Source: Trypanosoma brucei (taxonomy: Eukaryota). Taken from it: a DNA stretch of 64,000 bases. Positions 1 to 20,879 of the stretch are shown here, piece by piece. The notes beneath the pieces were generated by a model. The model saw only the letters and a program-made list of their open reading frames with translations, was not told the DNA's origin and ran no database searches. The stretch's first letter is position 1, and each line of letters begins with the position of its first letter. Where the stretch lies: positions 448,001 through 512,000 of the forward strand of contig CH464491.1 of the NCBI GenBank assembly GCA_000002445.1, given 5' to 3'. A program made the translations under genes and the position numbers.

Positions 1-3000
1 AATGGAAATTTGTATTTTAGTTGTAAGAGTAATGATTATTATATTGCGCTCATTCATGTTACAACTATACCAAATGGACATCTTGTTATTTTGTACTTCA
101 TTCTAACTTTATAACGACATACTCTCACACACATATATTGAATAAATTATTTTGATTATCATTTACTGACAGAAATAACAAAGAAACTTTATTATAAATT
201 ATATCAGAGCGGCATCTTGAGCACCAAGTTATTACAAGGGAAATTATTTTACAACACATTACGTTTCTTGTAAATCTTTTTTTTATACTTGATACAGACA
301 GACATATATTCTCAAGCAGTTCAACGAAATTACACTGCTTCATTAAAATATTTTAACTTATTGTATTTGTTTTGTAATAACATAATTTATCCTATTACAT
401 TTCCTTTCGGAGCTATTTGAACTAACCGTTTATGAAGATGTCATACATTCTGAAGCCTCTTGTACACAAGAATGAAGTGGCGCTGTTCCAATAGAAAATC
501 TTACTTCCCTATCTGGCCTTTGTTTTGTAACGTAACGTTGGCTTGTAATATTTTATGCCCCAAGATGTAACGAACCGAGAAGAAATTTCGTTTGTTTTAC
601 AGACGCCTCCAAATAACCGCAACTGTATGTTTGTTATTTTCTGGATTGTTGAGTCGTCCCCTGCTCTTTTTGCAACATTGAAACCCATTACTTTTCTTCA
701 CTAGTGCGGAATATATTCTATGTTGATGTTTTGTTGTTACTTGGTGATATTTGCGTACCCTACTACTGTAAGATAGCGAAGTAGAAGAACTACATTTCTA
801 AGGGTCGGAGGTTTCTGTTCCTACAGAAGTAAAAGAGTGTTGTGTTTCAAGGGATGCGTGCGCGGTGTGGCAATGTTGTTGAGCAGCGATACTGTCTTGA
901 ACCCATGAAACCAAAAGGTGGAGAATATTTGGCCCCTCAAGGGTAATTATCATAGCATTCCGTGTGTTATTTTTTATAATGGAACTGAAGTGAGCCAGGT
1001 GGGTTTTTTAAATCTTCATACATGAACAGTGGTGTCAATTACCTCCTAGTGCATGCATGATACCGTCTTTCATATATGGATATTGAACCTACCAAACACC
1101 CAATGAATACGACCTTACGCCGTGCGTCACTTGTCTTCAATATTTTGAATGTTGTGTTCACTTAACTTTTCTCACCCTCAATAGTGTTGGAGGTGTGGAT
1201 AAGACTCAGAAAACGCGATACAGTTACGCTACAGAACAATGAAGTAGAGGGTAACGTGCTGATGGCAAAATTTTTACTTTCAATGCCTTTGCGGCCGGCG
1301 TCCTTTCCTCCTCGGTGAAACTCACGATTTTCCTTTCAACATCCCTGCGTTAGATGCATGGCACGCGAAAACATAACCATACCCACATGCAACCGTGTGC
1401 ATTAGGAGTGTGCATAACCGGGATGTTGGGAAAGAGCCCCCGATGCGACGCCGTATCATTTATGACTATGCCGGTGGTCGAAAACAGGGAACTTCCTCGT
1501 TCTCATTGGGCCCACCCATTCATAAGGTCTGGCGGTCGGGGATGGCCTTAATGCGACAGGTACACGTACGGCGACGCTGGAGACGGCTGCATTGTCAACG
1601 GGTAAGCCAAGTTCCTCTATGCGTCCTAATCTTTAGAGTTTTTGGCAGTCGGTTGGTTGAGAGCTCCTGTTTTGAAGAAAAGTAGCCATACCATCTGTTC
1701 TCTGAAGTGCTAAGGGTATCGCGTTTTCTTCCCGAACTCGAAGACGCACTACTTTGGGGATATATAGACTGGCTGTCATTCAGTGCGGATGTTGAGCACA
1801 ACCAAGGGTCCAAATTTTCACAGATGTTAATGAGGTGCCGGGGATCTTTCCCAGTCGAAAAGGCTCGAAATGATCGAGCATTCATGTGACTTCGAAGTCG
1901 ACTTCCACCTTCCGTAAACACAACCACGTACCGGAGTGGGCGAACACATACATTTCATGACGCCCTCGTGTTGGAATAGTATGGTTTCCCATAGGAGAAT
2001 GAACGTCCATACAGATCAGGAATAACAATGGTGCAATACAAAGTCAAAATCCTGTGGTGACCCCTCGGAGTATCAGTCACGTTTTCGCTTACAAAGAAGG
2101 TGCAAACTACGCTCGTGTGTATGCGGTCCCTGGGCCTATTCGCAGCAGTTATGTGTTGCAATCTCACTGCGGGGTCCAATGCGTATTTTAAAGGGCCAAT
2201 TAGAAAAACTTATACGTGGACTTACACAACTAATCCTTTGTCAGTTGATCCAGGTAAACTTTATCAGCAACAGGGTCATGCGGCTGTTCTTTATGGAATG
2301 TAATGGTGGGAAATAGGGGTGAGACCGTGAGGATATTTCGAAACTGCAAATCGTTAGTGAAACAGAAGGGAAAGGGAAAACATTACAGAATAAACTGGTA
2401 AGAACTGATACTCTAAATAAAGGTTGAGAGGGATCTCGCAGAACTGAGTGCAGTTTTGAGCGGTGATTGACAAAAGGCTGTCTCATTAGTTGATTGAGGA
2501 AGAAACTTACGTACCTGGTCCAGTGTGTCGCTTCCTTCTCTTCACTCTAACGGCAACATTGCATTAACTGAATTCTGCAGCTGTTGAGGGGGATGGGCAC
2601 GCAAAAGTACCTTATGTGTTTGGAGGCGCGGGCAAAACCAGGAAAAAGTAGTTCTCGTCACCCTGGTGAGTTTCACCCTCTTCCGTGCAGGTTTGTCTTT
2701 TAGCGTTTTCGGTACCGTTTTCAACATTGCTGTTGGCGCTGCTTCCACGCGGCAACTGCATCCCAATATTCAGATGTCCCTTTAATCCTGTATTTTTCCA
2801 TGTTGCCGATGATTATCGTTTCTGTGCCCGATGAAGCGTCTAAACTCACCAGTTCATTTGTTGAAACTTTTCACTCCTTCTTATTGAATATCCCTATTTT
2901 TTGCGGCGTATGAGAGCCCTCCCCCATTCGTCTTTTGCGTTTGCTTTTATACCCACCCACGGAAAGCAAATTTATTTTCTCCTCGGAATCAACATCCAAG

Positions 3001-4736
3001 GAGCTTTAAGTGTGGAGTGCACCCTGATTTTCGCCTTCGGAGCACCAGACCTCCACTGTATTCAGCCATTCAGGTATTGGATGACTTCTAGGATATTGCC
3101 GGTTTATTATGTCTGAAAAGCATCCTTTTTGGCACTTGACGTGAGGCGGTATTCCACAGCCCACTTTTTTGGTCTTTTCAAACAAATATCAGTCGTGCTT
3201 ATTTGAGCATATCTTGTTTGTTTGCGTGCGACGAAATCTCAGCAATCGTGTATGCCGACTGAGCTTCCTTGCTTTTCGCTTTCTCCCCGCTTGAAATGGA
3301 AACGGAGAACCGTAGAAATAATACCATAGTCCATCTTTGCTTAGATGGGTCGAGAGTGGAAAGCTGTCGGTGTTTCTTGGGAGTTTTGCTCAGGTGATAG
3401 CACAACTCTTGGCTTTATGAATCTTGTCGTCGCTGCCGCCGCCATTTGCCACACATAGATTGGTACCCCTTCGGTTGCCACAATGCGGCGCCAAACAGAT
3501 TTGGCGTATTGGCATCGCTCACCATTTTTCCACGACTCGTGAAAGCGCATGGCTCTCGAGTGCTCGGTCCAAGTGATTTGTACTCCACCTCCGCCGGCAC
3601 TTCCGTAAAGTGTCCCGTTTATCGCTCGGTCACAAATTACAGAACCTGCTATAACTTACCTCTAAATTCTCCTCGTCCGAATTGAGTCACTGTGAGTTCC
3701 ATTTCGTAACTGAATAAACTGTGCGCGAGTCCAGGGATCACGTTCAGTTCTTTGCCCGGTCGTCCCATCATTATGAGCCCGGACCCGACACAGACGTATG
3801 AGGAACAGTGCATGTCGACTCTACACTCCCCGATAAAGTGTTGTTTACTCCGTTTTGTTTTTGAGGGGGCTGTGAGAAGAACTGCCAAGCCCATACCCAT
3901 TGCCAAGTAATGTACAAAACTCATCGATCCCCATTTTCATACCACGGTTAAGAGAAGCGTCGCAAAGAGTGAGTTTTTGAAACGCCCACCGAACCCAACC
4001 GTCACCGCCTCCGCGCGGGAGGCAGGTTAAGGGCACTTCCACCACCTTCTTTACCGCCAGTAAATTAACTTCCATACAATTGAGGACTCGCACACTACAG
4101 AAATCCCCCTCCCAAGCAATTTTAACGGCCGGCGTTGTAGGCACAACAAAGGTTAAAATATTACTCCTCCTGCTCGTTTTCTCTTCATTCAACACAAAAA
4201 AGGCAATGTATGGACTGTTCTGCCCGTTTTTTTTTTTTTGAGAGAGAGGGATAGTGAGGCTTCTGCAGCGGTAAAATTGCGAGTCAAGTGTTACCACGCT
4301 GTGGGAGGACACGACGTATAATGAAGGAAACTTTTTTTTTGCTTGCGGGCGGTTTAAAGGGATATGCGTTTAAACCATTATATCTTGAGTGGGTGGCGCC
4401 CGAAAAAGATCGCGAAGCAGGCATGAAGCTTGCGAAACTTCTTGGGGCTCAAAGGACCAACGACACGGTGAACTTGACAAAATTTGAGGGATGTAGAAGC
4501 TACATGTTGAGGAGAGCACAATGCATTAGCACGGTTCCCTAGGGCACTGGCTTTATGGAAACGGTGGTAAGATACCCGCTGGGGAGGCGAGCCAAACGTG
4601 CATTCATTTGGTGTATGGACTGCTAATAAACAAATGTAACAGGCGGAAGTCGGAGTTGTCGCACGCGGTGAGGCACCCCGTTGAGACGGAAGTATGGACC
4701 GAAACAACCCTCACATATAAAATGAAGCGTTCGCGT

Positions 4737-4751
4737 CACCCCCCCCCCCCC
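4737..4751. repeat. Homopolymer C15 tract. A (TG)9 tract follows at about 4829-4846.
   Basis: Seen in the sequence. Both are low-complexity tracts in the gene-free left region. Confidence 0.9.
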
Positions 4752-5660
4752 AGCGGCAGACATTGGCATATATGCGTTCGCGCTTGCACTTCATGTCAAT
4801 TTCGCCACTGAAAGGAGCACTCCATCCTGCGTGTGTGTGTGTGTGTGCTTGCCTGTGCATCTTTTTTCGAACGCCGTTGTTTTTATGTACGAAACGGAGG
4901 GCGGGGAGGGAGGGGAATCCCAGGTGGAAGTTATATTTCATGGCAGGGGAATATTGCTGACAGAATACTGTTACCAGTGCCCCGGCTGGTGGGGTTCGCC
5001 AACACGAAAGGACAATAGTGAAAAAAAATAAGGACTGGGGGAATAAAAATTTACAGAAGTTACACAGTTAAAAACACCATGAGCAATCGACGATTTCCAG
5101 ACCCTCTAGCACCACGATTCGGAGGTATTATTACACATTCCAGAATTTGTAGAGGTTCAAATTCAAGTTCCACGGTTCCAGTAATCCATCAGCCCTCACA
5201 AAACGTGTAAAGAAGCGCCAAGTTACTTCATGAGTCTCATCCGACCCATCTCATTCACGCTTTTCAAATACATACACTACAAAAAATCTACTCCCTCCGG
5301 TCTCCACAGGACGCACAAATTTGTCAGCGTGAACCCTGGTCCATGACGTAGAAAGTGTCTTGCGCCACCCGAAATACGTGGCTGAAGGATTTCGCGGGAC
5401 GGATACAAACCCCGCTGGGTAAAAGTGTGTGGGAGTTATCGTGCCTTCCGGGACCTATCTCCACAGCACATGTTTTCACCTCAGGGCAAAACGCATGTGG
5501 CCGCCTCATGCGAAATGGCATATCGGGAACACACCGCACACAGCACATCGGATACTAGCACCTACTCGACTACAAACAAGTAGAAAACGCACATGCATAG
5601 TACATTACGCCCCAGCAACGGGGGTCCTCCCCATTGATGGACGTGATGCGTGCCGAAGAA

Positions 5661-5728
5661 CGTGGACTGTAATTTTACCCGAGGTGTAAGCGCGATGAAT
5701 CACACCTCGGGTAAAATTACAGTCCACG
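5661..5728. repeat. Perfect 27-bp inverted repeat: arms 5661-5687 and 5702-5728 with a 14-nt loop. It forms a potential long hairpin about 100 bp downstream of the last minus-strand gene.
   Basis: Read directly: cgtggactgtaattttacccgaggtgt ... acacctcgggtaaaattacagtccacg, which are exact reverse complements. Confidence 0.9.
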
Positions 5729-5822
5729 AGCCTCGTCCACACGACCGGATGGGCAACTGCGTTGGAAACTACTTATGAAACAGAGTTAATAGTTTCTTTT
5801 GTTTAGAGGCGGGGGTCACACG

Positions 5823-6995
5823 CTATTTTCTCAGTGGTCGAATAAGCCATCTAGGGTCTGAAATGTCCGAGAGAGGGCACACACCACTAAGTTTCATATA
5901 CCGGCGTGCGCCCCACACAGTGTGGACTTCTACAGAGCTATTCTCCAATAGACGTCTGTAGGCATTTTTCTGTTGGAAGGAAGAATCTCGAAGGGCTCTA
6001 AACCAACTTGTTTGGTTGAGATATTTGGGCATCAGGTTCCTCCACGCACTAATTGAGGTTGGGAAGTGCAAAACCACGCCACTTTCGACCGAAACACTGT
6101 GGGGATAATGAAAAAAACGCGTCTCGTAATCGAGGGATATAATTCCCCTTCGCAGCAGTAATTTTGGCTTCACATGCTTCGGCCTACTGACGCTCCATGT
6201 CAACACTATAGTCCACATAGTTTGATCACATAGCCAAATAAGGCTCTGGCGTCTCAAATTAAAGAAAACTTTCAAAGCCTCTTTTAGCGCCCACACTCTG
6301 GCTATCACGCCTCCGCCATTAAGATACGACCTTCCCGATTCATTTACCCTTAAAATATTTTCAACTCCCACACCCCTTGTTGCATCCATTGCGTCATCAA
6401 ACAACTTCTTACAGTTTTGAAACTCCGACCTCCCCTCCGGCTTCACCATGATATTCAGCTGAGGAGTAGCGCAACCCTTCTCAGCGGTAAACAACATTGG
6501 AGGTGTCATTTCTCCTCTTAAAATAGCCGTCTCGTTGAACGCTTCAGGGATTTTTGGTGTAGTGTCGAGGAAATGCTTCACTGCCTCCTCCCTAACACCT
6601 GCATCGGTGAAATAGGTATCTCCCCCATCGAACAACATAATCACATCACTTTCGCGCATCTTCTCACGCACCATGTAACTATAAATCCAGTCCCACCTCT
6701 TCACATGCCCATACCAGCCTCCCATGCCCAGTGTCGCAACCGATGCATTAGTGAGTATAGAACTTACAATCATCCTGCACCACCCCGGAGAGTACCTCGT
6801 GTGCACCACAGCATAATACACCCTCGGCGTATAATTTCTACCACTGTCTTTCTTTCTTAACAACGTCCCTGTTTCCTTGTTCCTCACGCTCATTTCTCCC
6901 AAAAACCAGAGCACAGTTAGCAGCATCACCCCCACCATCGCGGCATATAGTCTTCCCCTTGTGCCCCCATAAATTGCCCTAGCCCCTTTCAACAT
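5823..6995 (-). CDS. Type-II membrane protein, tandem paralog 1 of 2, with a DGGDT (DxD-like) motif. Possibly a Golgi glycosyltransferase-like protein. The ORF could extend to 7010 if the first ATG is used.
   Basis: ORF of 395 aa with an N-terminal hydrophobic anchor (VMLLTVLWFL). It is about 75% identical to the adjacent paralog and shares the motifs WCRMIVSSILTN, GMGGWYGHV, FDGGDT and KHFLDTTPKIPEAFNETAILRGEMTPPML. The glycosyltransferase assignment is inference only. Confidence 0.6.
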   Translation of the reverse strand: MLKGARAIYGGTRGRLYAAMVGVMLLTVLWFLGEMSVRNKETGTLLRKKDSGRNYTPRVYYAVVHTRYSPGWCRMIVSSILTNASVATLGMGGWYGHVKRWDWIYSYMVREKMRESDVIMLFDGGDTYFTDAGVREEAVKHFLDTTPKIPEAFNETAILRGEMTPPMLFTAEKGCATPQLNIMVKPEGRSEFQNCKKLFDDAMDATRGVGVENILRVNESGRSYLNGGGVIARVWALKEALKVFFNLRRQSLIWLCDQTMWTIVLTWSVSRPKHVKPKLLLRRGIISLDYETRFFHYPHSVSVESGVVLHFPTSISAWRNLMPKYLNQTSWFRALRDSSFQQKNAYRRLLENSSVEVHTVWGARRYMKLSGVCPLSDISDPRWLIRPLRK

Positions 6996-7128
6996 ATAAA
7001 AACTTCGCAAAAAAAAAATGGATTTACTTGGAGAAGGGTGATGCTTTTCCCCTCAACTCGGACACAGTGCGGATGCGTTTTTTTTTTTTTTAACTCTGGC
7101 GAACGGTTCGTAAAAATTCCGTGCGATG

Positions 7129-8292
7129 TTACTTTTTCAACTGCCCACTGAGCCAACTGGGGTCGGAGATGTTAGATATGGGGCATACGGTACTTAACTT
7201 AGCGTCTTTGCGGGAACCCCAGAAAGTGTACATCTCCACAGTGGAATTTTTCAGCAAACGAATGGAGGCCTCCCGCTTGGGGGAAGAATTGCTCAGTGCT
7301 CTATACCAATTTATCTCACTCAGATACTGTGGCAATGTACGCTTCCACACGTGAACTGGTCCCGCAAAATGCAGTATCATTCCACTCATAACCATCGTCT
7401 TGGATGGATAAAGGAAGTAACGCGTCTCATAGTCAAGAGATATTAGCCCCCTTCTCACCAACAGCGCTGGCTTTATATTCTCCGGCCTGGTGATACTCCA
7501 TATTAGCAAGAGTGCCCACATTGACTGGTCGCAACCCCAAACAAACTTTTTTTTTCTGAGGTTAAAGAATGCCTTCAGAGCCTCTTCTAGTGCCCACACC
7601 CTGGCAATTATTCCTCCCCCGTTGAGATACGATCTTCCCGATTCATTCGCCCTTAAAATAGAACGCAACCCTGTGCGATTGGAAACTACGAACGCCTCGT
7701 TGTACAGTTTACTGCACTGATGAGCGCGCTCGCTCTTAGGTGTCTTTACCATGAAATGACTTTGAGGGGTGAAACAGAAATTTTCGGCGGCCATCAACAT
7801 TGGAGGTGTCATTTCCCCTCTTAAAATAGCCGTCTCGTTAAACGCTTCAGGGATTTTTGGTGTAGTGTCGAGGAAATGCTTCACTGCCTCCTCCCTTACA
7901 TCCTCCCCTGTGAAGACCGTATCGCCCCCATCAAATATCACAATCACGTCACCCTCACTCATCTTCTTCTGCCGTAGGTACCGGTACAACCACAACCACC
8001 TGCTCACATGCCCATACCAGCCTCCCATGCCCACTGTGGCAACGCTCACATTAGTGAGTATCGAACTTACAATCATCCTGCACCACCCCGGCGCGTACCT
8101 CGTTTCTGCAACAAGAAAAAACACCCTTGGTATGTGATTACCGTAACTTCCATCCTTCTTCCCCTCCACGCTAGTTTCCCCACTCCCTACATTTCTTAAC
8201 CCCAACCACCAAAAAAATAACATCAGCACCAACCCCATAACATACAACCTGCCCCTTGAATCCCCATAGAATTCCCTAACACCTTTCAGCAT
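7129..8292 (-). CDS. Type-II membrane protein, tandem paralog 2 of 2. Same family as 5823-6995.
   Basis: ORF of 387 aa with a signal-anchor (LVLMLFFWWLG), colinear with paralog 1. Central blocks are near-identical at nucleotide level, for example 6490-6590 versus 7800-7900. Confidence 0.6.
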   Translation of the reverse strand: MLKGVREFYGDSRGRLYVMGLVLMLFFWWLGLRNVGSGETSVEGKKDGSYGNHIPRVFFLVAETRYAPGWCRMIVSSILTNVSVATVGMGGWYGHVSRWLWLYRYLRQKKMSEGDVIVIFDGGDTVFTGEDVREEAVKHFLDTTPKIPEAFNETAILRGEMTPPMLMAAENFCFTPQSHFMVKTPKSERAHQCSKLYNEAFVVSNRTGLRSILRANESGRSYLNGGGIIARVWALEEALKAFFNLRKKKFVWGCDQSMWALLLIWSITRPENIKPALLVRRGLISLDYETRYFLYPSKTMVMSGMILHFAGPVHVWKRTLPQYLSEINWYRALSNSSPKREASIRLLKNSTVEMYTFWGSRKDAKLSTVCPISNISDPSWLSGQLKK

Positions 8293-9611
8293 ACAAACAG
8301 ATGTCTCTAAGAAATAAAAGGGTACGCACCCAGTGAGTGGACAACTACACGTTAAATCAAGGGAAACGAATAGTTAATGTTAAACATTAGTTTCCCAACA
8401 GTTAAGGCATGTAAATCCGGCACACCACAACACCAAAAACACATAAATATGTGCAACACCGATTATCTCGGGATGCTGATGCTCCCACTCGCCTACATAT
8501 GAAGGCAGTGGGTCTCAATGCATACCTCGTTAAATGTGAACCCAACGATAACGATATTCTGTGGGACAGATTCAAATAGATGAGACAACAGAGTAGTGTG
8601 CAGGCATTCAATACGTACAACAGTCAGACCTGTTGAGTTTGATTTAGTATTCAATAAGCGCGCTCATAAAGTAAGGCATATTGACCTTCACGTACACATA
8701 ATCGTTGTTTCCATCACACTGCCGCGTCTGTTGTGCATTCCCCCCATTTTCTTATCCACCTTCCCACCCAGATACCACAAACAAACCGCATGATCTCTCT
8801 TACACTTTCGAGCCAATACCGTCACCGAAAGTATACTGACAGGCAGCCAGACAGGGTAAGATTTGGTTCTAATGACATAATGCTGCGTAGAGCAAAGGTA
8901 GTGGGGGGGGGGAAAAAAAAGGATGTGGAGAGGGATGGAGGAAGGAAGGGAACGAGCTGCATAGCAGGCCATTGCTCAGCCGAAAGGTGATTTTTGATGT
9001 TCCGTTATCAATGCATCGCTCAAACTGTTTGGACCTCGAACAACAATTATGCATCACAGCATCAGTGGCCAAAAAGAAAACTAGTAGCACACATATACAC
9101 ACACACGAACATAAACATAAACATAAACATAAACAGGGATGAATGACCTATGAGGAAGAGGGTGGATAAAAACAAAATAATAAGGATGGATGATACTCGA
9201 TTCAGTGTGAGCTGAGTTAAAAATTATGTCTTCAAAATGGCTCTACTGCCGTCAGGCTGACAGGAAACTATTGACTGTCATCATTAGAGGGGAAGATAAT
9301 GCATTTGAGTGCCAAAACTACAAATGGCTCTCGCGCAACAGGACAGGGGCCACATCCCCACGGCATTAAATGGTTGCCACTGGCCCAAGGGATGCTGCGC
9401 TGTATTGTTTCAACAGCACATAAGCAAAAACACATAAATATGTGCAACACCGATTATCTCGGGATGCTGATGCTCCCACTCGCCTACATATGAAGGCAGT
9501 GGGTCTCAATGCATACCTCGTTAAATGTGAACCCAACGATAACGATATTCTGTGGGACAGATTCAAGTAGATGAGACAACAGAGTAGTGTGCAGGCATTC
9601 GATACGTACAA

Positions 9612-9712
9612 CAGTCAGACCTGTTGAGTTTGATTTAGTATTCAATAAGCGCGCTCATAAAGTAAGGCATATTGACCTTCACGTACACATAATCGTTGTT
9701 TCCATCACACTG
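9612..9712 (-). ncRNA. Candidate C/D-box snoRNA, candidate 1 of the repeat unit. Coordinates are for copy 2. It recurs at the same offset in each copy.
   Basis: Minus-strand reading: CAGU-GUGAUGG (C-box-like) ... about 90 nt ... GGUCUGA (D box) - ACUG. The flanking 4-bp CAGU/ACUG inverted segments could form the terminal stem. No covariance search was run. Confidence 0.3.
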
Positions 9713-9956
9713 CCGCGTCTGTTGTGCATTCCCCCCATTTTCTTATCCACCTTCCCACCCAGATACCACAAACAAACCGCACGATCTCTCTTACACTTTC
9801 GAGCCAATACCGTCACCGAAAGTATACTGACAGACAGCCAGACAGGGTAAGATTTGGTTCTAATGACATAATGCTGCGTAGAGCAAAGGTAGTGGGGGGG
9901 GGAAAAAAAAGGATGTGGAGAGGGATGGAGGAAGGAAGGGAACGAGCTGCATAGCA

Positions 9957-10060
9957 GGCCATTGCTCAGCCGAAAGGTGATTTTTGATGTTCCGTTATCA
10001 ATGCATCGCTCAAACTGTTTGGACCTCGAACAACAATTATGCATCACAGCATCAGTGGCC
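9957..10060 (-). ncRNA. Candidate C/D-box snoRNA, candidate 2. Coordinates are for copy 2.
   Basis: Minus-strand reading: GGCCA-CUGAUGCUGUGAUGCA ... GGCUGAGCAAUGGCC. GGCCA and UGGCC are a perfect 5-bp terminal stem. UGAUGC and GUGAUGC are C-box-like, with CUGA near the 3' end. Length is about 104 nt. Confidence 0.3.
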
Positions 10061-10193
10061 AAAAAGAAAACTAGTAGCACACATATACACACACACGAAC
10101 ATAAACATAAACATAAACAGGGATGAATGACCTATGAGGAAGAGGGTGGATAAAAACAAAATAATAAGGATGGATGATACTCGATTCAGTGTG

Positions 10194-10270
10194 AGCTGAG
10201 TTAAAAATTATGTCTTCAAAATGGCTCTACTGCCGTCAGGCTGACAGGAAACTATTGACTGTCATCATTA
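10194..10270 (-). ncRNA. Candidate C/D-box snoRNA, candidate 3. This is the most canonical of the three. Coordinates are for copy 2.
   Basis: Minus-strand reading: UAAUGAUGAC (exact C box AUGAUGA) ... CCUGUCAGCCUGACGG (CUGA, the D' box) ... UUUGAAGACA (C'-like UGAAGA) ... CACACUGAAU (D box CUGA). It is about 85 nt long, with box spacing typical of C/D snoRNAs. Confidence 0.4.
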
Positions 10271-13200
10271 GAGGGGAAGATAATGCATTTGAGTGCCAAA
10301 ACTACAAATGGCTCTCGCGCAACAGGACAGGGGCCACATCCCCACGGCATTAAATGGTTGCCACTGGCCCAAGGGATGCTGCGCTGTATTGTTTCAACAG
10401 CACATAAGCAAAAACACATAAATATGTGCAACACCGATTATCTCGGGATGCTGATGCTCCCACTCGCCTACATATGAAGGCAGTGGGTCTCAATGCATAC
10501 CTCGTTAAATGTGAACCCAACGATAACGATATTCTGTGGGACAGATTCAAATAGATGAGACAACAGAGTAGTGTGCAGGCATTCGATACGTACAACAGTC
10601 AGACCTGTTGAGTTTGATTTAGTATTCAATAAGCGCGCTCATAAAGTAAGGCATATTGACCTTCACGTACACATAATCGTTGTTTCCATCACACTGCCGC
10701 GTCTGTTGTGCATTCCCCCCATTTTCTTATCCACCTTCCCACCCAGATACCACAAACAAACCGCATGATCTCTCTTACACTTTCGAGCCAATACCGTCAC
10801 CGAAAGTATACTGACAGGCAGCCAGACAGGGTAAGATTTGGTTCTAATGACATAATGCTGCGTAGAGCAAAGGTAGTGGGGGGGGGGGAAAAAAAAGGAT
10901 GTGGAGAGGGATGGAGGAAGGAAGGGAACGAGCTGCATAGCAGGCCATTGCTCAGCCGAAAGGTGATTTTTGATGTTCCGTTATCAATGCATCGCTCAAA
11001 CTGTTTGGACCTCGAACAACAATTATGCATCACAGCATCAGTGGCCAAAAAGAAAACTAGTAGCACACATATACACACACACGAACATAAACATAAACAT
11101 AAACACGGGATGAATGACCTATGAGGAAGAGGGTGGATAAAAACAAAATAATAAGGATGGATGATACTCGATTCAGTGTGAGCTGAGTTAAAAATTATGT
11201 CTTCAAAATGGCTCTACTGCCGTCAGGCTGACAGGAAACTATTGACTGTCATCATTAGAGGGGAAGATAATGCATTTGAGTGCCAAAACTACAAATGGCT
11301 CTCGCGCAACAGGACAGGGGCCACATCCCCACGGCATTAAATGGTTGCCACTGGCCCAAGGGATGCTGCGCTGTATTGTTTCAACAGCACATAAGCAAAA
11401 ACACATAAATATGTGCAACACCGATTATCTCGGGATGCTGATGCTCCCACTCGCCTACATATGAAGGCAGTGGGTCTCAATGCATACCTCGTTAAATGTG
11501 AACCCAACGATAACGATATTCTGTGGGACAGATTCAAATAGATGAGACAACAGAGTAGTGTGCAGGCATTCAATACGTACAACAGTCAGACCTGTTGAGT
11601 TTGATTTAGTATTCAATAAGCGCGCTCATAAAGTAAGGCATATTGACCTTCACGTACACATAATCGTTGTTTCCATCACACTGCCGCGTCTGTTGTGCAT
11701 TCCCCCCATTTTCTTATCCACCTTCCCACCCAGATACCACAAACAAACCGCATGATCTCTCTTACACTTTCGAGCCAATACCGTCACCGAAAGTATACTG
11801 ACAGGCAGCTAGACAGGGTAAGATTTGGTTCTAATGACATAATGCTGCGTAGAGCAAAGGTAGTGGGGGGGGAAAAAAAAGGATGTGGAGAGGGATGGAG
11901 GGAGGAAGGGAACGAGCTGCATAGCAGGCCATTGCTCAGCCGAAAGGTGATTTTTGATGTTCCGTTATCAATGCATCGCTCAAACTGTTTGGACCTCGAA
12001 CAACAATTATGCATCACAGCATCAGTGGCCAAAAAGAAAACTAGTAGCACACATATACACACACACGAACATAAACATAAACATAAACATAAACAGGGAT
12101 GAATGACCTATGAGGAAGAGGGTGGATAAAAACAAAATAATAAGGATGGATGATACTCGATTCAGTGTGAGCTGAGTTAAAAATTATGTCTTCAAAATGG
12201 CTCTACTGCCGTCAGGCTGACAGGAAACTATTGACTGTCATCATTAGAGGGGAAGATAATGCATTTGAGTGCCAAAACTACAAATGGCTCTCGCGCAACA
12301 GGACAGGGGCCACATCCCCACGGCATTAAATGGTTGCCACTGGCCCAAGGGATGCTGCGCTGTATTGTTTCAACAGCACATAAGCAAAAACACATAAATA
12401 TGTGCAACACCGATTATCTCGGGATGCTGATGCTCCCACTCGCCTACATATGAAGGCAGTGGGTCTCAATGCATACCTCGTTAAATGTGAACCCAACGAT
12501 AACGATATTCTGTGGGACAGATTCAAATAGATGAGACAACAGAGTAGTGTGCAGGCATTCAATACGTACAACAGTCAGACCTGTTGAGTTTGATTTAGTA
12601 TTCAATAAGCGCGCTCATAAAGTAAGGCATATTGACCTTCACGTACACATAATCGTTGTTTCCATCACACTGCCGCGTCTGTTGTGCATTCCCCCCATTT
12701 TCTTATCCACCTTCCCACCCAGATACCACAAACAAACCGCACGATCTCTCTTACACTTTCGAGCCAATACCGTCACCGAAAGTATACTGACAGGCAGCTA
12801 GACAGGGTAAGATTTGGTTCTAATGACATAATGCTGCGTAGAGCAAAGGTAGTGGGGGGGGAAAAAAAAGGATGTGGAGAGGGATGGAGGAAGGAAGGGA
12901 ACGAGCTGCATAGCAGGCCATTGCTCAGCCGAAAGGTGATTTTTGATGTTCCGTTATCAATGCATCGCTCAAACTGTTTGGACCTCGAACAACAATTATG
13001 CATCACAGCATCAGTGGCCAAAAAGAAAACTAGTAGCACACATATACACACACACGAACATAAACATAAACATAAACATAAACAGGGATGAATGACCTAT
13101 GAGGAAGAGGGTGGATAAAAACAAAATAATAAGGATGGATGATACTCGATTCAGTGTGAGCTGAGTTAAAAATTATGTCTTCAAAATGGCTCTACTGCCG

Positions 13201-14826
13201 TCAGGCTGACAGGAAACTATTGACTGTCATCATTAGAGGGGAAGATAATGCATTTGAGTGCCAAAACTACAAATGGCTCTCGCGCAACAGGACAGGGGCC
13301 ACATCCCCACGGCATTAAATGGTTGCCACTGGCCCAAGGGATGCTGCGCTGTATTGTTTCAACAGCACATAAGCAAAAACACATAAATATGTGCAACACC
13401 GATTATCTCGGGATGCTGATGCTCCCATTCGCCTACATATGAAGGCAGTGGGTCTCAATGCATACCTCGTTAAATGTGAACCCAACGATAACGATATTCT
13501 GTGGGACAGATTCAAATAGATGAGACAACAGAGTAGTGTGCAGGCATTCAATACGTACAACAGTCAGACCTGTTGAGTTTGATTTAGTATTCAATAAGCG
13601 CGCTCTTTTTTTTTGGGAGAGGGTTACTTCTATTTGCTATATTATTTTTCTTGAACTGCAATGCCTTGCGTGAAGAAAATTATGAGGTGAAAAAAAAAGG
13701 TGTCAAGTTTTTGCTGTTATGGAATTGGTTTTTTTAATGCTTACTTGCTAAACTTTTTTTTTTTGGAGCAGAAGTGTTTACACATTTTCTTTTTTTCAAC
13801 TCATCATCCTGTCTTCCATTTTGTTATGTAACTGATCTTTATACAAATAAGAATGGATATTTGCAATGGAGAACGTATCGGTAGGATGGATGTGAGTTCT
13901 GACCCTTTATTCTGTGATCAGTTGTGGGATTTGCAATATATCTCTCGTGCGTTTTTTTAGAAAAAATATACCAAAGGATGAACAACTTAATGGTAAACGT
14001 TGGATCTTTTCTGCCGAATTTTTTCTTTCTTTTCTTCCATAACTTTTTTTTCTTGGAAGGTGGTTCTTTTCTTAACTTCTACCAAAGCATCGCCGCGTTA
14101 TGCAGTGCAAAGAGGCGAGTTTTTTTTATGTCGATCGAACCACCCTTTAAAAACAAGCAAAACCACGGATACGTAAACGTGTTAATGAGGTTGAGTGATA
14201 GCTTTTGTGACCAATCACCTCACGTGTGGTAACGGTAAGTAAAACAAAACGATGTAAAATGCGGCAAGGCAACAACGCATATGCGCAGTCACTTATATAC
14301 GAACAAATAACGAAATGACATATATATAATGGCAATTCATAAAAAGTGAGAGTAACCATGCCTTTGCAGTTGTGGAATCGTTGTTTTCCCTATTTCATCG
14401 ATTCCCTTGGTGGTTTGCCTTCATATGAAGCTGTGTCGGGCGCTTTCGACATACCCATCAATGCAACAATTCAAACTTGCACTCAGTCACTTTTTCCTTT
14501 TCCCCGTATCGGCGTGAGCTCTACGCTATTTCTCCTCCACTCTGTAGATATTGAGACGCTTGAACGATAACGTATATGAAATGCCCAGCAGTTGCAACCG
14601 CAAGCTTACACATGGATCACTGGACCTTTCCCATGCATAAAGCTAAATGCCATCTCCGAGGCAAGGCAAGAGAGTCGTGAAATACATGATCAAACGAAAA
14701 AATACGAAATGAGGCGACAAACGGCGGACTTCGCTCCGCCCAATAACTCAAATAAATAACACGCACCATATCCTGATTGCTTTACATAACATCCATCTCG
14801 CCACCCCTCGTCAGAACAAACAATTC

Positions 14827-16101
14827 TTAAAGACTGTTGATCAAATCTTTCGTAATGTTCTTGTGATGTGCCTCGAGTGTGCCGCCGCCGATCTCAAGCA
14901 ACTTCGCATCCCGCCACAGCCGCTCCACCGGCATATCACGCGCATATCCCATACCACCCATAACTTGCATGGCGTTGTCAGCCGCCCGCTTCGCAACAGG
15001 CGCTGCAAACAATTTTACCGCATCGCTCCCCAGGCGGTTGCAATTTCCTGGCGCCACACTCCTGCTTACAGCATATGTAAGTGATTTGGCCGCCTCCGTT
15101 TCTGCAAACGTCTCGGCAATGTAGCGCTGAATCTGTCCATAATTCCAAATGTGTTTACCAAACGTCTTACGCTCATTGGCATAACACGTCATGAGTTCCA
15201 CGCAACGATCAGCAATACCCACCGCCATTGCGGCCAATGTGAGACGCTCAACCTCCAGGTTACGCATCATTGCCACAAGCCCTTTCCCTTCAGTGCCGAG
15301 CAGATTCTCCTCTCCAAGCACCACATTATCGAAGAAAAGTTGACACATGTGAGACCCACGCATGCCGCACTTGTCAATCTTCTTCCCCACAGAAAACCCC
15401 GATGCACCCTTCTCTACAACGAACGCGGTGATTTTGCCGTCAACCTTTGCATACACAAGAACAAGGTCAGCAACGGTACCATTTGTCACCCACGTCTTGC
15501 CACCGTTAAGAATATACTTTCCATTACTTTCTTTTGTCGCAGTGGTCAGCATACCAAGAACATCTGTACCCGCACCGGGTTCCGACATGCCCATTGCACC
15601 TATGTGCTCGCCTGTAAGCACTTTGGGGAGCCACCGCTCCCGTTGTGCCGCTGTGGAAGCATGATAGAAGTTGTTCACAAAAAGCATCGAGTGAGCCAAG
15701 TAGGCGAGACAAAAGCCTGGATCCACTTTGGAAAGCTCGTGGTGGATAACAACCGCTGCCGTGGCGTCCATTCCAGCACCACCGTCTCCCTCAGGAATGG
15801 TTACACCGAGTACACCAAGGTCACCCAACTCGCGTAGGAGATCAACATTAAAATGCATGTCAATATCGCTCTGTTTTGCCTGCGTTTCAACCCGCTCCGC
15901 TGCGAATCTTTGAACCGTTTCACGCAGCATCTTGTGTTCAGGTGTTGGGTTTAAAAGATAATCCAAGTTAACGGTCGTCGAAGGAGAGAAAAAACGGAGA
16001 CCACATGGTGCTACCAGCGCAGTGTAGTGTCGTCTAATAGACGCTAAACGATACGAGCGCATGCTCAACAGGGGGAAATGAAACAAAACGCTCAAATTCA
16101 A
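14827..16101 (-). CDS. IVD: Isovaleryl-CoA dehydrogenase-like acyl-CoA dehydrogenase, with a mitochondrial presequence.
   Basis: The 424-aa ORF has ACAD family motifs: GAMGMSEPGAGTDV, NGGKTWVTNG, YAKVDGKITAFVVEK, and a C-terminal LEIGGGTLEAHHKNITKDL. The N-terminus (MRSYRLASIRRHYTAL) looks like a mitochondrial presequence. Confidence 0.85.
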   Translation of the reverse strand: MNLSVLFHFPLLSMRSYRLASIRRHYTALVAPCGLRFFSPSTTVNLDYLLNPTPEHKMLRETVQRFAAERVETQAKQSDIDMHFNVDLLRELGDLGVLGVTIPEGDGGAGMDATAAVVIHHELSKVDPGFCLAYLAHSMLFVNNFYHASTAAQRERWLPKVLTGEHIGAMGMSEPGAGTDVLGMLTTATKESNGKYILNGGKTWVTNGTVADLVLVYAKVDGKITAFVVEKGASGFSVGKKIDKCGMRGSHMCQLFFDNVVLGEENLLGTEGKGLVAMMRNLEVERLTLAAMAVGIADRCVELMTCYANERKTFGKHIWNYGQIQRYIAETFAETEAAKSLTYAVSRSVAPGNCNRLGSDAVKLFAAPVAKRAADNAMQVMGGMGYARDMPVERLWRDAKLLEIGGGTLEAHHKNITKDLINSL

Positions 16102-16838
16102 TAAGGCTCCTGTTTTCCCCCTCTTTTAATTCCCCACAAGTACAAGTTTCTTTTTCGATAATACCAACGAGATGCCGCAACAATCCACTACCCTCCCGGT
16201 AGTGTCAGCAGTTTCCCCCTTAATTTTCCACTTCCCCCACGATTATCCTCTACCCACCAGTTGGCTGCGCAGCGTCTAAGCACAGCACAAACAGTCACCG
16301 GCGCGTGAAAAAAAAAAAACTTATTCTGTCAAAGGTTTGTCGTCCGATGGCCTCCCGTTTTCGCTTGTTTTTATCCCTACTACTTTTCCCTTCCCTTCAA
16401 TTTTTTTTCAGGCACTGCGTATTTTGGGATGCAACGATGTGTGCAGACACTATCGAGGGAAGAACGAAAGATAGGAAGAAGGCTACAAAACAACAAGTGT
16501 ATTACTAAAAGTGAAGCAGAAGCAAATCCACAGCAAAAAAGGGAGCTCATGTAAACCTCCCCCCCCCTTCTTTTACAGGAAGCCACAAAGTGAGGGGAGC
16601 GATGCGGTCAGCTCACGCTTGCACAAGATCAAACAACAACAACCACAACAACCGACAAATAAGGTAGCGACACTTCCCTTCCTCGAACCAATCCTTCGTC
16701 CCTCTTCTCCAGCTCAGTTTCCAACCACTTTGCCGTTACCGAACCCGACAATATACCTCAAAACCGACACAAACAATATCAGGGAGAACGTACCGCCGTA
16801 GTTTTAAAACATACAAACTGCTTTATGCCATCAGCCAT

Positions 16839-18413
16839 TCATTTTACACCTCCATCGCAGACTCGCACATCTGCAACTGCTTGCTTCTCGGGATGAAAGC
16901 TCATGAAAGTAATCTTCCCATCCTCACTCTCCAAGAACCTCATGTGTCGCACCTGCAGCAGGTCCTGCTCCGCAGCAGTCAATTCATCCACCTTCACCTG
17001 AGACATTAAGCGACGCGTTTCATCCAACAGGAACTCTGAAGAGAAAGAGTTCGTCAACTTTTCACCCTGGTTAACGCTCTCCTCTTTTATTACCATGTGA
17101 ATTGGAGAAGAAAAGCGACCACGGAGCCCCAATACAGCAATGCATTGTTCCAACGGTGAAAAGCACGGTAGAGGGGATTCCGACACGGGTCGGATCTTTC
17201 CTAACAATCCCTTAACGTGCGATGCTCCCTTCAGCATCCCCGCTGTCGGTTTCTTCGTATGTGCTCGAAATTTGTAATCGTAGCACTGACCGGCCACGAT
17301 GGATCTGAGAGCCCACACTGCACCTTTCAACAGCTCCACACCTTCCTCTATCGCCTCCCTCGAGAGTGGGGACTCCTTCATTGTCATTTGTTTAATTTTA
17401 GACATGTACTTGGCCGGTGAACTGACGTCTTTCACTGCCATTACGGCGCGCAGAAACTCAATATCCACATCGAAACCCTCTCCACGTATGAGTGATCTCT
17501 TAAAATAACCACAGTGGAGACGAAGTTCTCTGTAACGACGCCAGAAAACAAGAGCCACCTTTCCAATTCCCTCAAACCAGTCGCCTCCACTAAGCAGCAT
17601 TAGGAAGACGAAATCAATACGATACGACGGTAACAAATCGGGTCGTATTTGATTCCCCGGTGAAGACGACCCCCAGTGTTTGAAAAGTTCACCAACATCG
17701 GTCAGAGCGTAGTCTCGGGGATCCACTATGGTGAATTTGGTATATGGAGTGCAGGCAACACCAACTAGCACCAAGTCGGAATCATTTCCGACGACTATAA
17801 TTTCATCATCTCCCGTATATGTTTGTGACTTCCGTTGCTCCAGCCAGATGGTACGCAAGACACAAACCACTTTTAGCTCGCCTTCACCACCTTCAGCGCA
17901 GCCACTCATAATAATTGTGTAATTCCTTCCCTCTCCCGGTGGCACACAAAATTCACCACCAATCCCAAATGCACATCTCACCGCATCTTCGCACGCAAGT
18001 AAAAATTCAGACCCCGCGATAATTTCTTCGCGTGAAAATGAGATTTCCTGCCCAATGTAGTCGTGATTGTATCTTAACTCGAGCGAACTTGTACACTCGC
18101 TACTGTGTCGCTTGTTATACGATGCACGCCGGGTCTTCTGTGTCTGAAGTTTGGCGCAAGGCGCAACCCCGTCAAAGAGAATCACAAGGGTTTCACTGGG
18201 GGGAAATGCGGAAATGAGCTTCTGCACAGCCTCAACTACTCCTTCAATCACTGACTTGGTGGTGAAAACATTGGTTGGCACGATATAATGAACAATGGCA
18301 TTCATATCTAAAAGCAGGTGGTTGGTCCTCTTGACGACACCGTCCCTGCCCCTGCTCGAACTTCTGACGAGACCATGTTTCTCGACATAATTTCGTAGCC
18401 CCTTGGTGCCCAT
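16839..18413 (-). CDS. XRN-family 5'-3' exoribonuclease N-domain protein. It is short (524 aa) and lacks the long C-terminal extension of XRN1/XRN2.
   Basis: MGTKGL...HLLLDMNAIVHY matches XRN MGVPKFF...LYLDMNGIIH. LVILFDGVAPCAKLQTQKTRR matches VFFMAVDGVAPRAKMNQQRGRR. DFVFLMLLSGGDWFEGIG matches the XRN (D/N)DF(L/I)P block. Confidence 0.7.
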   Translation of the reverse strand: MGTKGLRNYVEKHGLVRSSSRGRDGVVKRTNHLLLDMNAIVHYIVPTNVFTTKSVIEGVVEAVQKLISAFPPSETLVILFDGVAPCAKLQTQKTRRASYNKRHSSECTSSLELRYNHDYIGQEISFSREEIIAGSEFLLACEDAVRCAFGIGGEFCVPPGEGRNYTIIMSGCAEGGEGELKVVCVLRTIWLEQRKSQTYTGDDEIIVVGNDSDLVLVGVACTPYTKFTIVDPRDYALTDVGELFKHWGSSSPGNQIRPDLLPSYRIDFVFLMLLSGGDWFEGIGKVALVFWRRYRELRLHCGYFKRSLIRGEGFDVDIEFLRAVMAVKDVSSPAKYMSKIKQMTMKESPLSREAIEEGVELLKGAVWALRSIVAGQCYDYKFRAHTKKPTAGMLKGASHVKGLLGKIRPVSESPLPCFSPLEQCIAVLGLRGRFSSPIHMVIKEESVNQGEKLTNSFSSEFLLDETRRLMSQVKVDELTAAEQDLLQVRHMRFLESEDGKITFMSFHPEKQAVADVRVCDGGVK

Positions 18414-19678
18414 AACAATTTTCTCTGTGGCACCTTCCCTTCAAAAATAAACAAATAAATAAACGCAGTTTAGGGTAGCGTAGAGTAGTGTAAACGGGAA
18501 GAAAAAGTAAACTCAGCACTGGAGCAACGGCCCTTGCATGCGAAAACAAGTGCACTGAGGGAAAGAAAAGGTGCTATTTCTTTAGGAACCGGAATGTAAA
18601 TTACAGCATCTGAGTAAAAATTCGGGCAATCAGTAAAACCGCAGAACATCGAAAAGAGGCGGTTATTTCACGGAGGAAATGGCACACAGATTATGATAAG
18701 GCAATGTTTTCCGTGGTTCCGCCACAAGCGCGCACCACCTAGTGGGAGACACGGTGAAGTTGAATGTCAACACGACAATTTATAAAATTCTCATTCCGAA
18801 AAGTTCTATAAACGGTCATCACATTCACACGTTGCTCCTCTGACAATATGAAAACTGATTGAGCCGCATTAAACATCATTTCATGTACATCTCTCACCTT
18901 AATCACTTATTTACTGGATTCTCGGTAGTAAAGTCGCTCCATGTTTTGCGAAGATGCCTCCACACACACACGCACACACGCCTACAGTAGCACCAAATTG
19001 CATGAAACATTTCTGAATGTAATGAGTCATTAAGACATAAAAACATATGAACATATAAATATATATATATTTATATGTTTTTATGGGTGTACGGATGAAG
19101 TAACACCACGACATTTGTGCTCGCACCACCGCAAGCAGATTCAACCTTAATGATTTTCACCAGCTCTGGATTTACAATCATCAGCACCTGCTTTACTGTA
19201 TTAATGCACCGTTAGGCGAGCTAAACGTATGCACACACATTTCTCCCCTTCTTTATGGTATTTTTTTTCTTTTCGGTTTTGACTCAACAGAAATGAATAC
19301 CTTGTATACCTTTACTCTTCAACATTACCGAAAGTGATGAAAGTGTTGAATTATTATTATTATTATTTTGACGGTTGTGCGCGTATGTCCGTACGGCATC
19401 TGTCCACTTTCCCCCATCTAAAAAAAAAAAACAGCTCAACCTTGCCCACTTTGTTTTTTATTTCCTCCACAACCACTCCATCCTTCCCCACTCGAGCAAA
19501 CCACATCCCTTCCAGACATACTTTTTCTTTTTCTTTTCATGCCTTTGTCCATGTGGTGATGATAATTGTTATTAGCGTAAAATAACAAGACGTAAAACAT
19601 GAAAAAATAAATAAATAAAAATAAAGATAAAAATGAAGATAAAAAAGGAAGCGTGGAAAGGCATCACCTGAATTACAA

Positions 19679-20674
19679 CTACAATTTCTCCACCCACTTC
19701 TCATAACCCTCCCAGGGAGTGGACTCTCTGCAAATATCTTTTAATCCGCCCTCGCCCTGCTGGAACACCATAAAATGAGGAATTCCAGTCACCTTAATGA
19801 ACGGATGCGTGCGGTAGAGATATTTTGGGTTACCCAAATATACGGAGCGTTCAACATTGCATTGCACATAAACGACGCGGCGCTTCTCCTTCGCTGCCTT
19901 CACTGCGCGCTGCACCATTGGCTCTGCAAGAACACACGGAGGACACCACGACTTGTGGGTTTTGGGATGCGACACACCTTTTATAAGCACCACAAGGATA
20001 TCACCGGGTTGCAGTGCGGCTTTGACCTTCTCAAGTGTAGCATCGAAGTCCCTTGGATTTTTTACCAGAATGTTATCTGTATCATTCGCTGGGCCCATCG
20101 CTGTTTCGACTGGCGGATTGTTAATAAAAAACATGTGCTCCTCATGCGCTTCCACCGCTTCCTTGACAAGTGCTTCGGAAAGTCCAGCGGTGTCACGAGG
20201 AATGGGGCGAAAGGTTTCTGCGCGTCTGAAAAGACGGAGGCAAGTGGCGGGTCCCGAGTTGGAAGAAACAACTCGATGATACATTCCGGGGGGGAGAACA
20301 ATCACGTCACCCATTTTCCCCTCAATGCGTACCCACTCATCCTTCTCATTGCGCACATCCACATAAATAATACCACTTTCCACAATTCGCATTTGTTCAT
20401 CCACGTTAAGGTGTTCCATACTCTCATCCTTCGACGGTGTGGTAAACGTAACCTTCTCCAGTGTTTTGTAACCGAGGTTCCAAATGAGTCGCTGGGCGTA
20501 CGTACGGCCTTCATCGTCATCGGGGTGGCGTTCGTGAAGTGTTGCGACATCTATGCTGCGACTATAAACAAGAAATGTTTCCAATTGCACATCCGTCACG
20601 GGGACGTCTGGTGAGCAGTGACATGGTGCAGTAATATCACCCTCTTGTGTGTTCAATAACCAACTGCTCGGCAT
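19679..20674 (-). CDS. Acireductone dioxygenase (ARD cupin) fused to a C-terminal TRP14/TXNDC17-type thioredoxin-like domain. The ORF track extends to 20716 through a lysine-rich run that is probably untranslated.
   Basis: ARD core: EHLNVDEQMRIVESGIIYVDVRNEKDEWVRIEGKMGDVIVLPPGMYHRVV...CLRLF, matching human ADI1 [50 protein letters not shown]...AMRLF. C-terminal KSWCPPCVLAEPMV...VTGIPHFMVFQQG matches TXNDC17 KSWCPDCVQAEPVV...VTAVPTLLKYG. Confidence 0.8.
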   Translation of the reverse strand: MPSSWLLNTQEGDITAPCHCSPDVPVTDVQLETFLVYSRSIDVATLHERHPDDDEGRTYAQRLIWNLGYKTLEKVTFTTPSKDESMEHLNVDEQMRIVESGIIYVDVRNEKDEWVRIEGKMGDVIVLPPGMYHRVVSSNSGPATCLRLFRRAETFRPIPRDTAGLSEALVKEAVEAHEEHMFFINNPPVETAMGPANDTDNILVKNPRDFDATLEKVKAALQPGDILVVLIKGVSHPKTHKSWCPPCVLAEPMVQRAVKAAKEKRRVVYVQCNVERSVYLGNPKYLYRTHPFIKVTGIPHFMVFQQGEGGLKDICRESTPWEGYEKWVEKL

Positions 20675-20822
20675 TGTTTGATTCTTCCGTTTTGTTTTCT
20701 TTTTTCTTTTTTGCACCTTTAATTAACTTACCTGCACGGGTTTCGCAAAAGTTGACGATGTCTGTAACCTCGATGGGCCCCTAATTAAAGTCCACGATAT
20801 CGGGAACGGGAAGGAAGAGGAG

Positions 20823-20824
<2 letters not shown>

Positions 20825-20878
<54 letters not shown>
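20825..20878. repeat. (AC)27 microsatellite, which reads as (GT)n on the transcribed strand, in the spacer upstream of the ARD-fusion gene.
   Basis: Read directly. Confidence 0.95.

Positions 20879-20879
<1 letters not shown>

Follow-up and report, generated by a model that had tools for sequence, protein, structure and literature searches.

Trypanosomatid small nucleolar RNA (snoRNA) genes are organized in tandem repeats in which C/D and H/ACA-like genes are mixed (PMC3273796). For the H/ACA-like RNAs of one Trypanosoma brucei cluster, TB11Cs4H1, H2 and H3, RNA-seq abundances (reads per kilobase per million mapped reads, RPKM) in procyclic and bloodstream forms have been tabulated together with the targets, that of H2 lying in the small subunit (SSU) ribosomal RNA (rRNA), with a second one listed in the U3 snoRNA, and those of H1 and H3 in the 3' half of the large subunit (LSU) rRNA (PMC4855143 Table S1). 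RiboMeth-seq combined with NOP1 silencing led to the assignment of LSUb_1388 (A) and LSUb_1400 (A) to TB11Cs4C1, of LSUa_916 (U) and LSUa_927 (A) to TB11Cs4C2, and of LSUb_672 (U) and LSUb_673 (G) to TB11Cs4C3 (PMC9283944 Table 2). Most of these 2'-O-methylated sites are reduced on silencing (fold change 0.36 for LSUb_673 and 0.65 for LSUa_916, for example), and a further target has been speculated for TB11Cs4C3, in which a pseudouridine was found in a domain without a predicted rRNA partner (PMC9283944). The supplements of PMC3273796 and PMC9283944 do not mention TB11Cs4. Here we analyze a tandem array within a 64,000-nt stretch of T. brucei DNA (GCA_000002445.1, contig CH464491.1, forward-strand positions 448,001 to 512,000; hereafter the window), which is almost certainly the published and Rfam-catalogued reiterated cluster TB11Cs4, each unit carrying three C/D and three H/ACA-like guides of rRNA modification. 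The cluster was reportedly first described by Liang et al. in RNA 11:619 (2005).

The array runs head to tail on the minus strand from 8434 to 13605 and comprises 5.23 units, both edges being read by homology. A self-repeat search gave a unit spacing of 984–991 bp, with 5–6 in-register copies across approximately 8422–13661. An earlier inspection of the letters alone (the sequence-only reading) had placed the array at 8435–13606 with 5.2 copies of a unit of approximately 988 bp, and its edges agree with ours within 1 nt. The array was not reported by the repeat finder TRF because its longest period was set to 500. When the five full units are aligned, only 16 of 992 columns are variable, and identity is at least 98%. 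A T8C8-11 tract, in its oligo-C run, a microsatellite of 3–4 TGTTTA repeats and a few point changes account for the variable columns. The array is on the strand of all flanking genes, and the flanking open reading frames (ORFs) of at least 150 aa on the array's strand are all minus. No start-codon ORF of at least 150 aa is found inside the array in the ORF list, and the longest stop-free stretches are approximately 150 aa. The statement of the sequence-only reading, that coding potential is absent because the poly-G tract shifts every frame between copies, is loosely right, but the frame shift is not the real argument.

Six snoRNA genes cover half of each unit of approximately 988 bp. In the direction of transcription their order is C1 - C2 - H1 - C3 - H2 - H3, which matches the published numbering. 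The array begins in the middle of a gene, since its promoter-proximal edge is a 3' fragment of TB11Cs4C3 without a C box, presumably non-functional, and it ends approximately 30 nt past the sixth copy of H2. A tandem mixture of C/D and H/ACA-like genes on the strand of the polycistron is the organization by which reiterated trypanosomatid snoRNA clusters are recognized, and it is seen here. The earlier suggestion of such a cluster was well founded: the locus is from T. brucei, the three C/D genes per unit are supported by boxes, conservation and rRNA complementarity, and the three H/ACA-like genes by Rfam matches.

The H/ACA-like genes are identified most directly. When the whole window was searched with Rfam at gathering thresholds, 16 matches were obtained, every one of them inside the array, on the minus strand and over the full model length. 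They belong to three trypanosomatid H/ACA-like families that are each represented in the unit: RF01539 (TB11Cs4H1; 5 copies, 77.8–82.5 bits, gathering score 45), RF01540 (TB11Cs4H2; 6 copies, 67.3–73.1 bits, gathering score 50) and RF01541 (TB11Cs4H3; 5 copies, 90.2 bits, gathering score 40). It is because of these family names that the array is equated with TB11Cs4. According to the Rfam structure lines, H1–H3 fold into a single hairpin, in which a lower stem, a two-sided internal loop of 6–7 nt and an upper stem are followed by AGAGA or GAGA; the single hairpin with an AGA box is what defines trypanosomatid H/ACA-like snoRNAs. In H3 the top of the pocket is 15 nt from the AGA box (a 6-nt 3' strand, an 8-bp stem and 1 nt), the class norm being approximately 14–16 nt. 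The five copies of H1 fall into three sequence variants (A/G and C/U changes in the upper stem and internal loop) with unchanged pocket strands, and the first H2 copy has a single G>A in the upper stem, whereas all H3 copies and all C/D copies are identical. The sequence-only reading had suspected AGA-box single-hairpin RNAs between its C/D candidates, and three such RNAs per unit are indeed present.

Three C/D segments, in five identical copies each, measure 84 nt (C1), 104 nt (C2) and 101 nt (C3). C1 consists of the C box AUGAUGA, a 22-nt guide, the D' box CUGA, the C' box UGAAGA, a 23-nt guide and the D box CUGA. In C2 the terminal stem GGCCA/UGGCC encloses the C box GUGAUGC, D' UUGA, C' UGAUAA and D CUGA, and in C3 the stem CAG/CUG encloses the C box GUGAUGG and the D box CUGA, with a 14-nt guide directly upstream of D and degenerate internal boxes, GUGA (D') and UGAGCG (C'). 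The C boxes of C2 and C3 depart from RUGAUGA at the last position. The hallmarks of C/D snoRNAs, namely C and D boxes, a terminal stem and internal D' and C' boxes, are thus found, and the D' and C' pairs of C1 and C2 are conserved in the orthologues. Rfam holds no models for C1–C3. The three C/D candidates seen earlier lie where they had been placed and have the boxes and terminal stems ascribed to them: candidate 3 (AUGAUGA - CUGA - UGAAGA - CUGA) is C1, candidate 2 is C2 and candidate 1 is C3.

For the analysis of guide complementarity, rRNA was retrieved from metagenome and genome collections by patterns derived from the guides. A pattern embedding the C3 target returned more than 120 metagenomic stretches, of which L001–L120 were used; those sampled were eukaryotic LSU rRNA by Rfam. 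In one of these metagenomic eukaryotes the SSU rRNA contains a group I intron (RF00028, 86.7 bits; L018, 5725–6062, minus strand). A 20-mer joining the predicted D' and D targets of C2 returned four contigs in bacterial assemblies, among them RXJO01000217.1 (L132), which is filed as a Curvibacter sp. metagenome-assembled genome (MAG) and holds a complete eukaryotic ribosomal DNA (rDNA) unit by Rfam (SSU 1105–3230, 5.8S 3370–3537, LSU 3761–7509). The SSU 3' end of this unit, AGCUGUAGGUGAACCUGCAG, looks kinetoplastid-like by eye. The other three contigs (L130, L131 and L133, from a Hyphomonadaceae MAG, Stutzerimonas marianensis and a Sphingosinicella MAG) share the L132 LSU sequence around the match. 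The eukaryotic rRNA in these four bacterial assemblies is contamination.

On L132, five guides form duplexes of 11–14 bp, above the minimum of 10 bp, in which the target lies opposite the fifth nucleotide from D or D', as the geometry of methylation demands. The D' guide of C1 pairs over 12 bp with its target A at LSU:3341 (12 of 500 shuffled guides reach the score) and the D guide over 12 bp with A at LSU:3353 (5/500). For C2, an 11-bp duplex of the D' guide points to U at LSU:820 (17/500) and a 12-bp duplex of the D guide to A at LSU:831 (2/500). The D guide of C3 forms a 14-bp duplex with its target G at LSU:2688, a score reached by none of 500 shuffles. The top sites recur in independent eukaryotic LSU loci; in L001–L120 the top site of the C2 D guide is CCGA[A]AGGUGGUGA. 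The predicted targets (two A residues at a distance of 12 nt, a U and an A at a distance of 11 nt, and a G that follows a U) coincide with the published sites in nucleotide and spacing. When the entire window was scanned naively for C/D genes with L132 as the target, the 5.2-kb array gave 25 matches and the other 58.8 kb, on both strands, gave 9, at least two of which lie within listed ORFs. Among the H/ACA-like pockets, H2 has its best L132 site at SSU:1762 (13/14 pairs; 5/200 shuffles reach it). The best sites of H1, LSU:3372 (ACCGUCG-UG-AGACAGG; 12/14 pairs, 73/200 shuffles), and of H3, LSU:2644 (11/12 pairs, 33/200 shuffles), are not individually significant. The rRNA species of all three sites agrees with the published targets (PMC4855143 Table S1).

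Conservation of the cluster was followed at syntenic loci, which were reached via orthologues of the isovaleryl-CoA dehydrogenase (IVD) protein encoded next to the array and then scanned with Rfam. Downstream of IVD, the same families occur in tandem reiteration in T. melophagium, T. theileri, T. conorhini and Leishmania major. The T. melophagium cluster has at least four units of approximately 1130 bp. On L. major chromosome 27 (FR796423.1; fetched stretch 16200–21233), subunits of approximately 600 bp (C1, C2, C3, H2) lie among units of approximately 1073 bp that also have H1, and H3 had no match in the stretch fetched. These clusters are thus similar to TB11Cs4 in synteny, gene families, guide elements and tandem reiteration, while they differ from it in unit length and composition and in having a DUF1295 gene between IVD and the cluster. 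When the T. brucei C1–C3 are compared with the orthologous loci by BLAST, only short, perfectly conserved blocks are found. MAFFT alignment with four other trypanosomatids identified them as the boxes together with the nucleotides that immediately precede D' and D, the remainder having drifted. The guide blocks GUUUCCUGUCAG and AACUCAGCUCACA of C1, GGUCCAAACAGU and AAAUCACCUUUCG of C2 and AAACUCAACAGGU of C3 are identical across orthologues, and the 5' (D'-side) domain of C3 is partly conserved. Conservation restricted to boxes and guides is the footprint that would be expected of guide snoRNAs. In T. equiperdum (GCA_003543875.1, CM010682.1; L121, 12460–13643) there are approximately 1.3 units (C3 fragment, H2, H3, C1, C2, H1, C3, H2), which is either a collapsed assembly or a true difference in copy number. 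The T. cruzi syntenic loci (L122–L124, 11800–20400) contain no TB11Cs4-type snoRNAs, and retrotransposon hot spot (RHS) genes lie directly downstream of IVD there. The T. vivax contig ends short of the expected cluster site.

Compared with the published TB11Cs4 (RF01539, RF01540, RF01541), the array is the same locus of the same genome, with the three H/ACA families at full length and three C/D snoRNAs, and no substantive difference was seen. More distant counterparts are the C/D guides that serve the same conserved LSU positions in yeast and plants, which we take to be the snR39/snR59/Z196 family (25S A807), snR71 (A2946) and snR75 (G2288); the yeast 25S equivalents of the targets are presumably A2934/A2946 for C1, U796/A807 for C2 and G2288 for C3. 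These guides work in the same mode as the TB11Cs4 C/D RNAs and on apparently homologous rRNA nucleotides, but there is no family membership at the sequence level: C2 scores 27.3 bits (E = 0.74) against RF00134 (snoZ196/R39/R59), far below the gathering score of 55. In addition, the yeast guide genes are mostly independent or intronic, whereas TB11Cs4 is a mixed C/D and H/ACA tandem array. Similarly, canonical eukaryotic H/ACA RNAs resemble H1–H3 in the pocket, in the uridine approximately 14–16 nt upstream of the 3' box and in the dependence on CBF5, but they have two hairpins and an ACA box, while H1–H3 are single hairpins of 63–76 nt with an AGA box.

If the cluster behaves as is general in trypanosomatids (PMC3273796), RNA polymerase II would read through the array within the minus-strand polycistron, single snoRNAs would be cut and trimmed from the precursor, and tandem reiteration would raise the snoRNA dosage. 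The C/D RNAs are expected to assemble with the fibrillarin/NOP1 complex, after which the 11–14 nt upstream of D or D' would pair with LSU rRNA and the nucleotide opposite the fifth guide position would be 2'-O-methylated. C1 would direct modification of LSUβ A1388 (D') and A1400 (D), beside the A-loop of the peptidyl-transferase region, C2 that of LSUα U916 (D') and A927 (D), and the D guide of C3 that of LSUβ G673 (with U672). The H/ACA-like RNAs would assemble with CBF5, their two-sided internal-loop pockets selecting uridines for pseudouridylation; the target of H2 is probably in the SSU, and those of H1 and H3 probably lie within the LSU, in its 3' half. We regard it as quite unlikely that the D'-side (5') domain of C3, as well as H2 with its U3 target, also directs modification of non-ribosomal RNAs, as has been speculated (PMC9283944).

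Several points count against this assignment of the array to guides of rRNA modification. In the scoring of the duplexes, L132 and further eukaryotic LSU loci served as stand-ins for the rRNA of T. brucei itself. Two of the tests, C2 on L132 and C3 on L001–L120, are partly circular, the patterns having been built from those guides; C1 on both sets, C3 on L132 and the C2 D guide on L001–L120 are independent tests, and the C2 D' guide, which lacks a fully independent one, is supported by the finding of the C2 20-mer in real LSU rRNA. The putative D' guide of C3 has no rRNA target on L132 (64/500 shuffles), and the pocket matches of H1 and H3 are non-significant when taken singly. The names C1, C2 and C3 rest on gene order and on agreement with PMC9283944 Table 2, and the copy number of 5.2 may be inexact in view of the T. 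equiperdum assembly.

A different origin of the array, as a non-functional satellite or mobile-element remnant with chance box-like motifs, is hardly conceivable. It is true that the array is a tandem repeat of long period containing a microsatellite and homopolymers, that it adjoins ESAG-like genes and that RHS genes occupy the equivalent T. cruzi site. Such a remnant, however, would not be expected to give 16 full-length Rfam matches above the gathering score, nor to show boxes and guides that are selectively kept between Trypanosoma and Leishmania next to diverging spacers. The match of five guides to conserved LSU sites, with the fifth-nucleotide rule and the published spacing, as well as the RNA-seq and RiboMeth-seq data published for the named RNAs (PMC4855143, PMC9283944), also speak against it. 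It is very improbable, too, that the genes are real but that the main role of the C/D RNAs is in the processing of pre-rRNA, or concerns targets other than rRNA, instead of being the guiding of methylation. All five matched guides obey the geometry of methylation, and the corresponding positions have been measured as 2'-O-methylated, most of them dropping on NOP1 silencing (PMC9283944), although some trypanosome C/D snoRNAs, e.g., TB11Cs2C2, do have a processing role (cited in PMC3273796), and both the speculated further target of TB11Cs4C3 (PMC9283944) and the D' side of C3 without an rRNA match on L132 would suit this reading.

The number of units is a separate question, which leaves the snoRNA cluster as such untouched. 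Units that are at least 98% identical are hard to assemble, and the syntenic site of the T. equiperdum assembly has only approximately 1.3 of them, so that the 5.2-copy structure could be an assembly artefact with a different true number. We consider this unlikely, since the small diagnostic variants among the units (three H1 variants, TGTTTA x3 or x4, C8-C11) mark them as distinct, separately assembled copies, and several copies are likewise present at the orthologous loci of T. melophagium and L. major. As TB11Cs4 has been published and catalogued in Rfam and its targets have been mapped experimentally, the locus is already known. The present analysis offers nothing new for T. brucei biology, its value being that of a sanity check of recognizing a snoRNA cluster from raw sequence; what it adds, at the level of annotation, are per-copy coordinates (Table 1), the C3 edge fragment, the H1 and H2 variants, a copy number that may differ from that of T. 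equiperdum, and the loss of the DUF1295 neighbor.

Table 1. Positions of the array, its edge fragment and the individual snoRNA gene copies in the window.
Feature	Position	Strand	Remarks	Basis
Whole array, snoRNA cluster TB11Cs4	8434..13605	-		Repeat search, unit alignment, edges
TB11Cs4C3 3' fragment, promoter-proximal edge	13561..13605	-	45 nt; guide, D box, stem half; no C box	
TB11Cs4H2 copy 1	13406..13468	-	AGA box; G>A in upper stem; 67.3 bits	Rfam
TB11Cs4H2 copy 2	12417..12479	-	73.1 bits (gathering 50)	Rfam
TB11Cs4H2 copy 3	11428..11490	-		Rfam
TB11Cs4H2 copy 4	10441..10503	-	Pocket strands CAUUGAG + GCAUCAG	Rfam
TB11Cs4H2 copy 5	9457..9519	-		Rfam
TB11Cs4H2 copy 6	8466..8528	-	Last gene of array	Rfam
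TB11Cs4H3 copy 1	13275..13350	-	90.2 bits (gathering 40)	Rfam
TB11Cs4H3 copy 2	12286..12361	-		Rfam
TB11Cs4H3 copy 3	11297..11372	-		Rfam
TB11Cs4H3 copy 4	10310..10385	-	Pocket strands UCCCUU + CUGUCC	Rfam
TB11Cs4H3 copy 5	9326..9401	-		Rfam
TB11Cs4H1 copy 1	12745..12815	-	82.5 bits	Rfam
TB11Cs4H1 copy 2	11756..11826	-		Rfam
TB11Cs4H1 copy 3	10769..10839	-		Rfam
TB11Cs4H1 copy 4	9785..9855	-	Pocket strands CCUGUCU + CGAAAGU	Rfam
TB11Cs4H1 copy 5	8794..8864	-		Rfam
TB11Cs4C1 copy 1	13151..13234	-	Candidate 3; C box to D box	
TB11Cs4C1 copy 2	12162..12245	-		
TB11Cs4C1 copy 3	11173..11256	-		
TB11Cs4C1 copy 4	10186..10269	-	C 10268-10262; D' guide 10261-10240; D' CUGA 10239-10236; C' UGAAGA; D CUGA 10189-10186	
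TB11Cs4C1 copy 5	9202..9285	-		
TB11Cs4C2 copy 1	12916..13019	-	Candidate 2; stem GGCCA to UGGCC	
TB11Cs4C2 copy 2	11927..12030	-		
TB11Cs4C2 copy 3	10943..11046	-		
TB11Cs4C2 copy 4	9957..10060	-	C GUGAUGC; D' UUGA 10013-10010; C' UGAUAA; D CUGA 9969-9966	
TB11Cs4C2 copy 5	8967..9070	-		
TB11Cs4C3 copy 1	12572..12672	-	Candidate 1; stem CAG(U) to (A)CUG	
TB11Cs4C3 copy 2	11583..11683	-		
TB11Cs4C3 copy 3	10596..10696	-		
TB11Cs4C3 copy 4	9612..9712	-	C GUGAUGG; D CUGA 9618-9615; 14-nt guide directly upstream	
TB11Cs4C3 copy 5	8621..8721	-		

Outside the array, three further candidates were rejected. The C-box-like GGAUGAUGAG near 13810 (minus strand) has no D box, and an SCARNA7 match at 14255–14406 was dismissed as weak (16.8 bits). 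A C/D-like segment of 55 nt at 16785–16838 (minus strand; CUGAUGG...CUGA) sits directly after the stop codon of an XRN-like gene and is complementary over 12 bp to L132 at SSU:1066; since it lacks conservation beyond the T. brucei group, we regard the match as fortuitous.

As for the neighboring genes, the ORF at 7129–8292 (minus strand) shares 100% identity with an ESAG-like protein from T. brucei brucei TREU927, and that at 14827–16101 (minus strand) encodes IVD and is approximately 100% identical to a T. brucei-group protein. By the identity of these two proteins the locus can be placed on chromosome 11 of T. brucei brucei TREU927. In T. theileri, T. vivax, T. conorhini, T. melophagium and L. 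major (L125–L129), the DUF1295 gene sits between IVD and the snoRNA cluster. In T. brucei, tblastn of the whole 64-kb window, including 13606–14826 between IVD and the array, found no trace of it. The T. brucei array is followed by the ESAG-like ORFs 7129–8292 and 5823–7010 (minus strand), and the cluster seems to be located at a synteny break.

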